Part shown: in pieces, positions 10,231-54,999 of the stretch
Position numbering within the stretch: the first letter of the stretch is position 1
How the letters are laid out: each line of letters starts with the position of its first letter
Origin: a virus
Lineage: Duplodnaviria > Caudoviricetes
DNA: 62,127 nt
Strand: one strand, 5' to 3'
IMG/VR virus record: IMGVR_UViG_3300026911_000014
Location: 1 to 62,127 of that record
Program-made: the position numbers and the translations under genes
The notes under the pieces: model-generated
Seen by the model: the letters and a program-made list of their open reading frames with translations, nothing else
What the model was told of the DNA's origin: nothing
Databases searched by the model: none

Positions 10231-10585
10231 TTTTATTATTCCATTGGTAGTGTATCCATTTGATGTAATGATTTCATTTGGAGAAACAGATCAGAAATTA
10301 ATAGCAACATTAAAAAGGAATGGTATTGTGGATGAAGAAGAATTAAAATTAGTCTTAATGAGTGGGATGGGTCGTTATTGTATGTTCAATAATAATTCTT
10401 CTTTAATTAGACTTTGGACTTATCCCGAATATGCTGCCGATTATGGGACATTGGCACATGAAGTATTCCACGCTACTACTTATATTTTAGATAAAATAGG
10501 AATGGATTTCACTTTAAAAATAAGCGATGAAGCATATGCCTATCTTATAGGATACATTACGACGGAGATTTATAAAAAATTATAA
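10211..10585 (+). CDS. HEXXH metallopeptidase-like phage protein
   Basis: TLAHEVFHA...DEAYAYLIG; ATG at 10211. Confidence 0.65.
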   Translation: MKKKSLNFIIPLVVYPFDVMISFGETDQKLIATLKRNGIVDEEELKLVLMSGMGRYCMFNNNSSLIRLWTYPEYAADYGTLAHEVFHATTYILDKIGMDFTLKISDEAYAYLIGYITTEIYKKL

Positions 10586-52694: not shown

Positions 52695-53339
52695 ATGACC
52701 ATAGCATTTGCTCCAGCCGGGTCTCGTGGATTTGACTGTAATCAGCCGTTATCTCGCTCTCAGGCTATGATGTTTGCAGAAGCTGGATATTCCTTTTGTA
52801 TCAGATATCTGCCTCGTACATCATCCTTACTTAACGGGAATCTAACAATCGTAGAAATACAGTCTATTCTTGCTGCTAATTTAAGCCTAATGGCCGTCCA
52901 GCATTGCCCACTCCCAAATTGGAAGCCTACGGGACTGTTGGGGACTCAATACGGCCAATATGCTGGCCAATATGCCTCCGAAATAGGCCTGCCGCAAGGG
53001 ATTAATTTATGGCTGGATTTAGAAGAAGTGGCTGCTGAATCAAGCGATCAAGATGTAATTGACTATTGTAATAACTGGGCTGTAGAGGTATCGGGTCATG
53101 GGTATATCCCTGGATTATATGTTGGGTATCATCCCGGTCTTTCCAATGATCAATTATACTTCGATCTGTCTATTAAACATTATTGGCGAGCATATAATGC
53201 AGATAACGAGATATCAACAAGAGGGTATCAACTTGTTCAGCACCCACAGCAGAAACTAGACAACATTGCTTTTGATCCAAACACTACTCAAATCGACAAA
53301 ATGGGAGATTCGGTCATTTGGTTGTCCCCGGGCAAATAA
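52695..53339 (+). CDS. Endolysin, DUF1906 / GH25-like muramidase
   Basis: RGFDC, GYSFCIRYL, LWLDLE and GYIPGLYVG motifs. Confidence 0.85.
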   Translation: MTIAFAPAGSRGFDCNQPLSRSQAMMFAEAGYSFCIRYLPRTSSLLNGNLTIVEIQSILAANLSLMAVQHCPLPNWKPTGLLGTQYGQYAGQYASEIGLPQGINLWLDLEEVAAESSDQDVIDYCNNWAVEVSGHGYIPGLYVGYHPGLSNDQLYFDLSIKHYWRAYNADNEISTRGYQLVQHPQQKLDNIAFDPNTTQIDKMGDSVIWLSPGK

Positions 53340-53368: not shown

Positions 53369-53405
53369 AAGCGGTTGGAGAAGGCAAGTCTCTGGCCGCT
53401 TTTTT
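53369..53405 (+). terminator. Intrinsic terminator ending the lysis operon
   Basis: aagcggttggaga/tctctggccgctt followed by a T-run. Confidence 0.75.
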
Positions 53406-53466: not shown

Positions 53467-53646
53467 ATGGGAGATAAGAAAGACAAAGAAGTAGTAAAAA
53501 CGATAAAGGTGAGTGATAGCATTTGGAGAAGACTTCGAGTTCTGGCCGGTGTGAATGGAGAAGAAATGATTGAATGTGCCGACAAAGTATTGGATAAAGC
53601 CCTCCCTCCCCTTCCTAAACAAAGTTTAAAAAATACACCCAAATGA
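53467..53646 (+). CDS. Ribbon-helix-helix DNA-binding protein
   Basis: KTIKVSDSIWRRLRVLA pattern. Confidence 0.6.
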   Translation: MGDKKDKEVVKTIKVSDSIWRRLRVLAGVNGEEMIECADKVLDKALPPLPKQSLKNTPK

Positions 53647-53753
53647 AAGCATTATTATTTGTGGCCGTTATGGCTTTGATGGTTCTATCTCTATCATCTT
53701 GTAGTACTCAGCGAAAAGGATGTTTTGCAACTCAGGGAAAGGTGGGCTATTGA
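53643..53753 (+). CDS. Small lipoprotein (36 aa)
   Basis: MKALLFVAVMALMVLSLSS/CSTQRKGCFATQGKVGY; lipobox LSSC. Confidence 0.65.
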   Translation: MKALLFVAVMALMVLSLSSCSTQRKGCFATQGKVGY

Positions 53754-53795
53754 ATTGTACAAAATATTAAGATTTGTGGCAAGCAATCGTTAATC

Positions 53796-53832
53796 AGCCG
53801 GTAGGTTTCTACCTTTTAGCTGGCTCTTTTTT
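53796..53832 (+). terminator. TTCT-loop hairpin 1 with T-tail
   Basis: agccggt-aggt[ttct]acct-ttt-agctggct ctttttt. Confidence 0.55.
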
Positions 53833-53885
53833 AAGAAATTGTTCCGTATCTTATAGGATAGAGGTTTTAAAGTTAATGGAGACAA

Positions 53886-53913
53886 GCCTCCTATTTCTAT
53901 AGGAGGTCTTTTT
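53886..53913 (+). terminator. TTCT-loop hairpin 2 with T-tail
   Basis: gcctcctat[ttct]ataggaggt cttttt. Confidence 0.65.
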
Positions 53914-53917
53914 AGAG

Positions 53918-53993
53918 GGGGAGATGCCAGAGTGGCTTATTGGCTCCCATCTTGCGGATGGGATGTTCTAAGGTTCGAATCCTTATCTCTTCT
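53918..53993 (+). tRNA. Atypical tRNA (TGC anticodon, Ala-like) or pseudo-tRNA
   Basis: GGGGAGA/TCTCTTC acceptor, D-arm CCAGAGTGGCTTATTGG, 6-bp anticodon stem with loop CTTGCGG, T-arm TAAGG-TTCGAAT-CCTTA. Confidence 0.6.
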
Positions 53994-54036
53994 CGATTTT
54001 TTTTCATAGGATAAGGTTTAATGGTTAAGGATTGTT

Positions 54037-54065
54037 CCCTCCGGAGATTCTGCCGGAGGGTTTTT
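54037..54065 (+). terminator. TTCT-loop hairpin 3 with T-tail
   Basis: ccctccgg[agattctg]ccggaggg ttttt. Confidence 0.65.
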
Positions 54066-54078
54066 AAAAGCTAAAAGA

Positions 54079-54165
54079 ATGTCTTTAGACGATATAGATA
54101 GAATATGTGGTTATTGGGCGGTATTTCTAATGGTCATTGCTACAATCAGTTTGATTTTGATGTAA
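54079..54165 (+). CDS. 28-aa hydrophobic peptide
   Basis: MSLDDIDRICGYWAVFLMVIATISLILM with an A-rich leader. Confidence 0.35.
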   Translation: MSLDDIDRICGYWAVFLMVIATISLILM

Positions 54166-54199
54166 ATTACTAGTATAGGATAAGTGCTATTTTTTAGTT

Positions 54200-54265
54200 C
54201 CTCTTATGACTGGTATAGAGGCCGAAAGGATGATAAAAGCAGGCAGTCAGTCGCCGGACGCTTTT
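54200..54265 (+). ncRNA. Candidate kissing-loop structured RNA
   Basis: Three hairpins; the loops of the first (gactgg) and third (tcagtc) are complementary. Confidence 0.4.
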
Positions 54266-54329
54266 GAAGACAATTTATAGAATACTGTCCTATTTTTTTA
54301 ACTTATTGCTTGATATTGATTAAAAAAAC

Positions 54330-54609
54330 TGAAATGGTAAGCCGGACAAATCCAAACCAGAGGCGACGACGAGGAGGGATATGCCTATGACTCGATTCGC
54401 TCAATGTCAAGCAAAACTTACTTTTTGGATGCGAACTAGCAGTGTAAACGATGATAAGATTAGTTCTGTTATTTCTGAAACTGCTTATGTCAAATTGTAA
54501 GCGTACGCGCATTAACCGCTTATACCCGAGCCAACGTTGTGTGGGCCTAGTTGCAAGGAGGGCATGAAATTGGTAACTTGCTGACAGCCGGGAAAGACCG
54601 GCATCTTTT
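54330..54609 (+). ncRNA. Candidate multi-hairpin ncRNA ending in GCCGG-GAAAGA-CCGGC
   Basis: Higher-GC stretch without a credible ORF; several stems. Confidence 0.35.
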
Positions 54610-54632
54610 AACCCCGCTAAAATCCCCAAGCC

Positions 54633-54815
54633 ATGTATAATTTATTAATGTCCGCCACTGCTAATACTATTCTATCTTCAATTATTGGGTTTACGCTAGG
54701 AGTACTAGCGGGTGCGGCATGGTATAGCGCGCATAAAAAAACACAGAAAGAAGAACACGTATTTGACGAAAGAGATATTTATACTACTCCGGTAAGAAAA
54801 ATAAACAATGTTTAG
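54633..54815 (+). CDS. Small membrane protein
   Basis: One TM segment (IIGFTLGVLAGAAW). Confidence 0.5.
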   Translation: MYNLLMSATANTILSSIIGFTLGVLAGAAWYSAHKKTQKEEHVFDERDIYTTPVRKINNV

Positions 54816-54887
54816 GACTTTTAGCTCAGTTGGGAGAGCGGCAGCCTCATAAGCTGCGGGTCATCGGTTCGAGTCCGATAAGGTCCA
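54815..54887 (+). tRNA. tRNA with CAT anticodon (probably Ile2, otherwise elongator Met)
   Basis: Canonical cloverleaf GGACTTT...GCAGC-CTCATAA-GCTGC...ATCGG-TTCGAGT-CCGAT-AAGGTCC-A; C4-G69 pair as in TilS substrates; no initiator features. Confidence 0.9.
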
Positions 54888-54965
54888 CACTCTCCGATAT
54901 TGGAGAGCTTTCTGCTTCGGTTTGGTAGAGGCAGGCAAGTGACATGGCGTCACAAGTAAGGTCGA

Positions 54966-54999
54966 TCCCCTCTGTGTTCTCATAGAGGGGACATTTTTA
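54966..54999 (+). terminator. TTCT-loop hairpin 4 with T-tail
   Basis: tcccctctgtg[ttct]catagagggga catttttt. Confidence 0.65.

Follow-up and report, generated by a model that had tools for sequence, protein, structure and literature searches.

Putative small RNA units between the tRNA genes of a soil phage resemble chromosomal small RNA genes of Chitinophagaceae

The stretch of DNA analysed here, referred to as the window, is the virus record IMGVR_UViG_3300026911_000014 of IMG/VR (Duplodnaviria; Caudoviricetes) over its full length of 62,127 nucleotides (nt). On its + strand, between positions 53778 and 54998, four short units, each with a hairpin that carries TTCT in its loop and is followed by a T-tail, are interleaved with genes for tRNA-Ala(UGC) and tRNA-Met(CAU) (Table 1). 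An earlier, sequence-only reading of the window had interpreted these units as phage small RNAs (sRNAs) with a common protein-binding loop and antisense seeds against start-codon regions. All four hairpins that it described are present. Units 2 and 3 are indeed preceded by related sequences, and unit 3 lies right behind a tRNA gene, 3 nt from the end of tRNA-Ala; unit 4 begins directly after tRNA-Met. In the predicted fold of unit 1, the inner loop UUCU at 53807-53810 is closed by a U-A pair. No open reading frame (ORF) of at least 80 codons ends within 100 nt upstream of units 2, 3 or 4; unit 1 follows a lipoprotein ORF.

The array is more than a chance arrangement. When the entire + strand of the window, which carries nearly all of its genes, was scanned uniformly with a stem finder, 29 terminator-like hairpins were detected. 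Exactly three of these hairpins have a TTCT loop, and all three belong to the array; unit 1 is absent from the scan because its stem is bulged. The motif ATAGGATA occurs seven times in the window compared to 4.0 expected copies, and three of the seven lie inside a 330-nt stretch of the array. A gapped pattern common to units 2 and 3, which was composed post hoc when the units were already known, gave two matches in the window and none in 100 shuffled versions.

Table 1. Features of the array and of its surroundings in the window.
Feature	Position	Strand	Details
Unit 1	53778-53832	+	17-mer GGCAAGCAATCGTTAAT 53778-53794; bulged hairpin 53796-53825; T-tail 53826-53832
Unit 2	53845-53913	+	ATAGGATAGAGGTTTTAA 53853-53870, then AGTTAATGG; hairpin 53887-53906, loop TTCT; tail TCTTTTT
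tRNA-Ala, anticodon UGC	53918-53994	+	ARAGORN; Rfam tRNA 37.7 bits
Unit 3	53997-54070	+	T-run; core CATAGGATAAGGTTTAATGG 54005-54024; hairpin 54037-54060, loop AGATTCTG; tail TTTTT
tRNA-Met, anticodon CAU	54815-54888	+	Rfam, 67.9 bits
Unit 4	54889-54998	+	110 nt, four hairpins; last 54966-54991, loop TTCT, then CATTTTT
Third ATAGGATAAG	54175-54184	+	no hairpin after; E 7.3 with the hidden Markov model of the unit 3 family, not significant alone
Rv2525c-like glycoside hydrolase	52695-53339		one of the lysis genes
Strong terminator	53369-53401		3' of the lysis genes
Lipoprotein ORF	53643-53753	+	
Small ORF	54079-54165		28 codons
ORF-poor stretch	54166-54632		467 nt
Small membrane-protein ORF	54633-54815		60 codons

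Judged by its sequence, unit 3 is clearly a phage copy of a family of putative chromosomal sRNA genes of Chitinophagaceae, which comprise a promoter, about 70 nt and a terminator. A hidden Markov model (HMM) deduced from 105 distinct family members matched unit 3 with an E-value of 2.5e-10 (nhmmer), and this homology to a conserved chromosomal family favours the proposal that unit 3 is an sRNA gene. The 20-nt core CATAGGATAAGGTTTAATGG occurs in at least 120 genome stretches. Among the matches listed, most belong to Chitinophagaceae or Chitinophagales, including the genera Niastella, Terrimonas, Puia, Ferruginibacter and others, and some come from genome records whose titles name cultured strains, such as Niastella caeni, Pinibacter soli and Terrimonas pollutisoli. 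With at most one mismatch, the core was found in 33 of 101 sampled Chitinophagaceae genomes in one to four copies each; a control pattern was found in none. The conservation of the 5' part extends well past the 20-mer that was used for the search (GGTTAATGGTWTTTGATTAG), and many chromosomal copies contain a TAnnTTTG box about 7 nt before the sequence UUUUCAU. Unit 3 contains the exact core, matches the profile and has a terminator within 85 nt, the features by which the family was delimited. It is identical to the host family over 24 nt and its remainder is unlike the long host form; its 5' part is predicted to be weakly paired.

A hairpin with a T-run follows within 85 nt of the core at 107 of 113 distinct genome sites; of 2000 positions drawn at random from these loci, 87 are followed by one. 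Unit 3 and nine of 14 viral sites also have such a hairpin. The sequences of the hairpins vary between the chromosomal copies. RNAalifold, applied to a MAFFT alignment of the family, did not recover the terminator and yielded no formal covariation counts, because the variable stems were misaligned; the test for the presence of a hairpin was used in its place. Most of the chromosomal copies are stand-alone genes with their own promoter and are not adjacent to tRNA genes. The genomes hold several paralogues, some of them with point changes in the core. At several of the 16 chromosomal loci inspected, the neighbours are the same, namely a gene for a UbiX-like or thioredoxin-fold protein on one side and an aminotransferase gene on the other, as identified by reading the translations. 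Tandem arrangements of the core were also observed in chromosomes, with three copies within 400 nt (G077:C11:243463-243866) and with two copies 156 nt apart (G050:C1:3093800-3093975). A third family of the anti-start type is represented by an sRNA-like unit at four further Chitinophagaceae loci (L349, L252, L264 and L331), which consists of UUUUCAUAGAAUAUUGGAUUGAAAC, a TTTCTA-loop hairpin and a T-run.

Unit 3 is reminiscent of FopS. As described in the FopS paper (PMC11697453), FopS sRNAs consist of an unpaired 5' stretch and a terminator, have 14 paralogues in Bacteroides thetaiotaomicron, bind the protein RbpB and repress susC-type mRNAs via pairing next to the start codon. It also mentions that one Caudovirales phage contains a FopS sequence, and proposes phages as vehicles of its spread. 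GibS acts similarly to FopS according to the GibS paper (PMC7366714), which also states that Bacteroidota lack obvious homologues of Hfq and ProQ. The Rfam model of FopS (RF04319, BTncRNA_FopS) aligned over its full length to 53997-54070 with 24.8 bits and an E-value of 0.5, and by our own count from this alignment unit 3 is identical to the FopS consensus at 25 of the first 31 positions. A degenerate pattern that fits both unit 3 and the FopS consensus was found in at least 109 viral and at least 120 genomic stretches. A downstream hairpin with a T-run accompanies 86 of 109 viral and 104 of 128 genomic sites of this pattern, and an ORF of at least 60 codons occupies the opposite strand at just 12 viral and five genomic sites. 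The sites split into two forms; one is the classical FopS form of Bacteroidales, the other, CATAGGATAAGGTTTAATGG, is identical to unit 3. By analogy, unit 3 may work like FopS, and it may be a distant relative.

The exact core was also found in 15 viral stretches, where it is combined with unrelated hairpins. Five other core-bearing virus records were compared with the window, and the core was the sole sequence that they have in common with it. In one phage record, tRNA-Met is followed after 7 nt by the core with a TTCT-loop hairpin and then by tRNA-Trp; another record contains two copies of the core in opposite orientation. Among 18 viral loci that were scanned, tRNA genes lie beside the unit in one and about 8 kb away in another, and 16 contain none. 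A further candidate, a stretch flanked by two units in record G009, looks tRNA-like by eye; it was not counted, as neither ARAGORN nor Rfam called a tRNA there. No TAnnTTTG box exists on the + strand of the window between 53340 and 55020. Given this lack of a host-type promoter and the second phage with a core between tRNA genes, a release of the units by tRNA processing, as suggested by the sequence-only reading, is plausible; phage-specific promoters may serve the units as well. The findings show that such units recur in phages of this clade, in some cases within clusters of tRNA genes.

Unit 1 also has relatives. Its 17-mer gave 14 viral matches, and a hairpin follows in four of these loci, which correspond to three distinct phage sequences besides the window (loci L443 and L453 are identical over the stretch compared). 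The remaining ten matches are located in apparent coding regions, and roughly that many are expected by chance, as estimated from the size of the collection. Of 201 Chitinophagaceae genomes, four contain the 17-mer, in all cases with a hairpin and a T-run; the control pattern was found in one. In three of these four chromosomes, tRNA-Cys and a further hairpin unit precede the 17-mer, the distance to tRNA-Cys being about 115-130 nt. Unit 1 thus carries a second conserved 5' stretch. It contains GGCAAGCAATCGTTRAT and, at most a few nt further on, a terminator-like hairpin, which is the arrangement that defines this second family. Since 17-mer and hairpin recur in phages and in chromosomes, unit 1 is a second recurrent small unit, assigned to family GGCAAGCAAUCGUU; in the window it could double as the terminator of the upstream ORF.

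The three chromosomal loci with tRNA-Cys(GCA) (L455, L456 and L457, all from Chitinophagaceae) deserve a description of their own. Two successive hairpin units, whose loops are TTTCTA or TTTCCA, come directly after the tRNA gene, and the 17-mer of unit 1 is part of the latter unit, so that a tRNA-attached array of small units exists in chromosomes as well. One of the phage records with the 17-mer, G007, shares with the window a lysin (about 48% identity over 84 residues), the lipoprotein ORF and the small membrane-protein ORF, and a copy of the unit 3 core follows its 17-mer stretch at a distance of about 65 nt. In G007 (loci L434 and L437), a long GC-rich stretch without ORFs lies between the lipoprotein gene and the sRNA-type units, about 360 nt before the unit-1-type element, and Rfam found nothing there. 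At locus L443, positions 10479-10533 gave a match to the type III hammerhead ribozyme with 44.4 bits compared to the Rfam cut-off of 48.5 bits, and the same contig contains a unit-1-type element.

Unit 2 aligns to the unit 3 family over its whole length with two insertions of 1 nt and with UAU in place of CAU. Its 19-mer was found in no viral contig and in five unrelated genomes, where about four matches are expected by chance according to our own arithmetic. We read unit 2 as a probably private duplicate of unit 3 that has diverged and whose seed is altered. Unit 4 has a predicted folding energy of -45.9 kcal/mol (z -4.78), and none of 200 shuffled sequences was as stable. No relatives of unit 4 were found, and we read it as a predicted structured RNA that is unrelated to the other units. 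The third ATAGGATAAG, at 54175-54184, is possibly the remnant of a further unit. The tRNA-Ala(UGC) between units 2 and 3 is atypical; it is 77 nt long with a long D-loop, and it is not listed by the Rfam scan in gathering mode. It keeps the pair G3:U70 and adds G2:U71, and CCA is not encoded.

The TTCT loop, which the sequence-only reading had taken for a shared handle, turned out to be characteristic of a subset of units. Among 111 distinct family units, nine contain TTCT, eight TTCC and six TTCG. By our own count, TTCT occurs in four of the seven short forms of the family (at most 63 nt) compared to five of the 104 longer forms. Chitinophagaceae loci with a total of 1.2 Mb contain 133 hairpins downstream of an anti-start-like stretch, and 19 of these have TTCT in the loop; TTCT was also found in 11 of 389 hairpins behind long ORFs and in 29 of the 1740 other hairpins. 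Under strict criteria, no other tetraloop outside the family was as common as TTCT (8 of 95), and TTCT was found in none of the 20 hairpins directly after long ORFs; six of these eight loops belong to further UUUUCAUA-type units, as judged from their contexts. In Bacteroidales loci, TTCT does not rank among the 15 most frequent loops. It is present in five of the eight units bearing the 17-mer of unit 1, the window counted, and in the three chromosomes where the 17-mer lies behind tRNA-Cys, the additional hairpin units contain TTTCTA as well. With just 19 of 133 related sRNA-like terminators, the loop is enriched and nevertheless no universal handle. It is not simply the common terminator loop of this clade either, an explanation that the sequence-only reading had named as one that would refute it, because it is enriched after anti-start-like stretches and rare after ORFs. 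TTCT therefore marks a subset of sRNA-type units; this may reflect the shared descent of a mobile short form, or some function.

The proposed antisense seeds against start codons are supported in part. The core of unit 3 resembles the mirror of a start-codon region, and this likeness is a general one. When matches to the ideal target of the core were anchored at AUG, 643 gene starts of Chitinophagaceae reached a mean of 10.8 out of 34 positions and 640 internal ATGs a mean of 8.8 (p about 1e-30); the excess at gene starts arises at positions -12 to -10 and +4 to +7, which are rich in A. The proposal does not extend to the other units, as CAU is replaced by UAU in unit 2 and an anti-start motif is absent from units 1 and 4. 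In five genomes, a search for near-complements of a 16-mer with at most two mismatches gave 143 matches compared to 61 for the control pattern, and few gene starts were among the 30 loci examined. Two real gene starts with two to three mismatches were found in other genomes. Complements within the phage itself (a perfect one of 13 nt to unit 2 at 1201 and one of 11 nt to unit 3 at 1746) were not used as evidence, as they were noticed post hoc and lie away from start codons.

The window encodes a DnaB-like helicase, a large terminase, a portal protein and virion proteins, which identifies it as a phage; the record looks complete, and CheckV estimates 90%. No integrase or resolvase and no tyrosine or serine recombinase was found among its genes, and the phage is a lytic-looking one of Bacteroidota. 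Relatives of the large terminase with 48-54% identity occur in metagenome bins of Bacteroidota, and one of these bins also has a canonical chromosomal copy of the unit 3 family. The window thus represents a soil phage, whose host is probably a member of the Chitinophagaceae (Bacteroidota). A search of viral contigs with the lysin gave no close phage relatives, the proteins of the window found distant matches only in the viral loci compared, and in isolated phages the tRNAs were the sole matches to the window. Two small ORFs lie between the strong terminator behind the lysis genes and the array. The ORF-poor stretch within the array contains no convincing ORF, although the phage genome is otherwise compact, and the fold of 54290-54632 is unremarkable (z -0.48). 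An exact stretch of 24 nt (about 54581-54604, a GC hairpin) is common to the window and phage record G008, and the start of the small ORF that comes next is about 84-92% identical to G007 over 24-40 nt.

Taken together, we assign a probability of about 0.6 to the interpretation that the array is a non-coding cassette in which tRNAs are interleaved with short RNA units, at least two of which copy sRNA genes of the host, and which would hijack a host circuit. Each unit would consist of a single-stranded 5' stretch, a GC-rich hairpin and a U-tail. As the units lack a host-type promoter of their own, the cassette and its tRNAs would be transcribed together, and cuts by RNase P and RNase Z at the tRNAs would free the units. 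The freed 5' stretches would then pair near the start codons of host (or phage) mRNAs and block their translation; alternatively, the units would occupy a host protein that normally handles host sRNAs. Both mechanisms would place a regulatory circuit of the host under the control of the phage, which may thus use host-style RNA regulators during infection. The evidence is on the level of sequence, structure potential and distribution, from which transcription, processing, pairing and benefit to the phage are inferred. A more far-reaching version, which we consider unlikely, is that of modular arrays of host-sRNA mimics, in which anti-start, GGCAAGCAAUCGUU and private seeds would be mounted on a U-UUCU-A hairpin between tRNAs. 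The units would be released by the tRNA-processing enzymes of the host, the loop would be bound by an RNA-binding protein common to several host sRNA families, and the result would be a programmable shut-off of translation aimed at secreted or outer-membrane proteins of the host.

A number of findings weigh against the interpretation as a cassette of host-like sRNAs. Every unit ends in a terminator-like hairpin, and efficient serial terminators would block read-through, so that termination would have to be leaky at best. The stop of the lipoprotein ORF lies 43 nt ahead of the unit 1 hairpin, which is possibly the terminator of that gene. For unit 2, the family HMM gave an E-value of 0.75 (rank 3 in the window), which is not significant alone, and CAU is lost. 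The stretch is present in six DNA runs from soil, two of which contain it in full and may be the origin of this DNA, and four of which contain small shares; no RNA run is among the runs listed. As to targets, a test of 29 susC starts against neighbouring genes was weak (mean -17.5 vs -16.3 kcal/mol, p 0.07), and three of 100 shuffled seeds did equally well. Near-complements of a 21-mer with at most three mismatches in five genomes were mostly further sRNA paralogues and not mRNAs, and no single strong target emerged from the susC test and the near-complement searches. The relation to FopS is equally limited. Unit 3 fails the gathering score of RF04319 (24.8 vs 56 bits). A lax search (E up to 10) matched eight of 14 control genomes, one of them above the cut-off, and a FopS match (E up to 1) was obtained at one of five family loci, with 32.1 bits, and at none of the other four; this sub-threshold match was the only family that Rfam reported at these five loci. 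In the reciprocal search, the family HMM matched six of 119 classical FopS sites, none with an E-value below 0.01, so that common descent with FopS is not shown. For these reasons, that is, the sub-threshold score, the matches in control genomes and the failed reciprocal HMM search, unit 3 was not filed as a member of FopS.

The terminator-like hairpins at the ends of all four units could simply be what they look like, namely ordinary intrinsic terminators or spacers of the tRNA region of a phage, with host-like 5' stretches that were captured passively and have no function. The closeness of unit 1 to the upstream ORF, the lack of an RNA run listed for the stretch and of targets in the searches agree with this explanation. 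However, units 2-4 are not preceded by an ORF of at least 80 codons within 100 nt, 24 nt of unit 3 have stayed the same as in the host family although its remainder differs from the long host form, and the core is kept across the viral stretches in spite of their unrelated hairpins. Moreover, the 17-mer of unit 1 is kept between phages whose lysins are only about 48% identical over the aligned part. Plain terminators leave the conserved 5' stretches unexplained, and we regard this explanation as quite unlikely. It is very unlikely that the units act in cis within tRNA transcripts, as processing guides, stabilisers or sponges like tRNA spacer RNAs, and not as trans regulators. The tight adjoining of units and tRNAs in the window and in one other phage record, the position of the 17-mer downstream of tRNA-Cys in three of four chromosomes and the highly structured unit 4 would be in line with such a role. 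It fits poorly with the chromosomal unit 3 genes, because most of them stand alone with their own promoter away from tRNAs, and tRNA genes beside a unit are the exception among the phage loci as well (one of 18).

The core might also be an attachment site, by which temperate phages integrate into a chromosomal sRNA gene and carry the replacement part, as is done with tRNA genes. Three of the five other core-bearing phage records indeed encode a tyrosine integrase, a variant copy of the core lies about 1.5 kb from the integrase in one record, and two core-bearing records are classed as proviruses. For the window, this explanation is highly improbable, because its record has no tyrosine or serine recombinase; in addition, the window contains tandem diverged units and full-length tRNAs, and the record with two copies has them in opposite orientation. 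Some temperate phages with a core near an integrase may nevertheless use it in this way. The cassette of host-like sRNA units remains the preferred interpretation of the array.

If it holds, start-codon-masking sRNAs would be extended from gut Bacteroides to soil Chitinophagaceae, where about one third of the sampled genomes contain the family. If the units are expressed, they would be a case of a phage that copies the seed of a regulatory RNA of its host. They would furthermore offer a testable route to sRNA targets and protein partners in a phylum that, according to the GibS paper (PMC7366714), is without obvious homologues of Hfq and ProQ. The host side is directly testable, because the records of the cultured strains named above carry the core. 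Literature searches, at the level of search results, yielded nothing on the Chitinophagaceae family or on arrays interleaved with tRNAs, and nothing relevant on phage-encoded sRNAs in Bacteroidota or on sRNAs of Chitinophaga.

Among known systems, FopS and GibS of B. thetaiotaomicron are the closest in design. Like these, unit 3 is about 65-75 nt long with a single-stranded 5' stretch and one Rho-independent terminator, its 5' stretch contains UUUUCAU, the mirror of AUGAAAA, and the Chitinophagaceae family has several paralogues per genome. Differences to FopS are the scores for RF04319, 24.8-32.1 bits with a cut-off of 56 bits, and the failure of the reciprocal profile search. The host bacteria belong to soil Chitinophagaceae and not to Bacteroidaceae, and unlike FopS with its canonical Bacteroidota promoter, phage unit 3 has no TAnnTTTG box and abuts a tRNA. 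Short non-coding RNAs that are located between tRNA genes and released by tRNA-processing enzymes are represented by the species 1 and 2 RNAs of phage T4 and by 3'ETS-leuZ of E. coli. These RNAs are not known to be similar to a host regulatory sRNA family, whereas in the window at least two units appear to copy chromosomal sRNA genes. Prophage sRNAs that imitate or counteract host sRNAs include AgvB and AsxR from prophages of enterohaemorrhagic E. coli, and DicF. As in these cases, a mobile element would here carry small RNAs that plug into post-transcriptional networks of the host. The array differs in that it belongs to a different phylum without an obvious Hfq homologue and is arranged with tRNAs; furthermore, the phage unit has the seed of the host sRNA itself and may therefore be a mimic and not an anti-sRNA.

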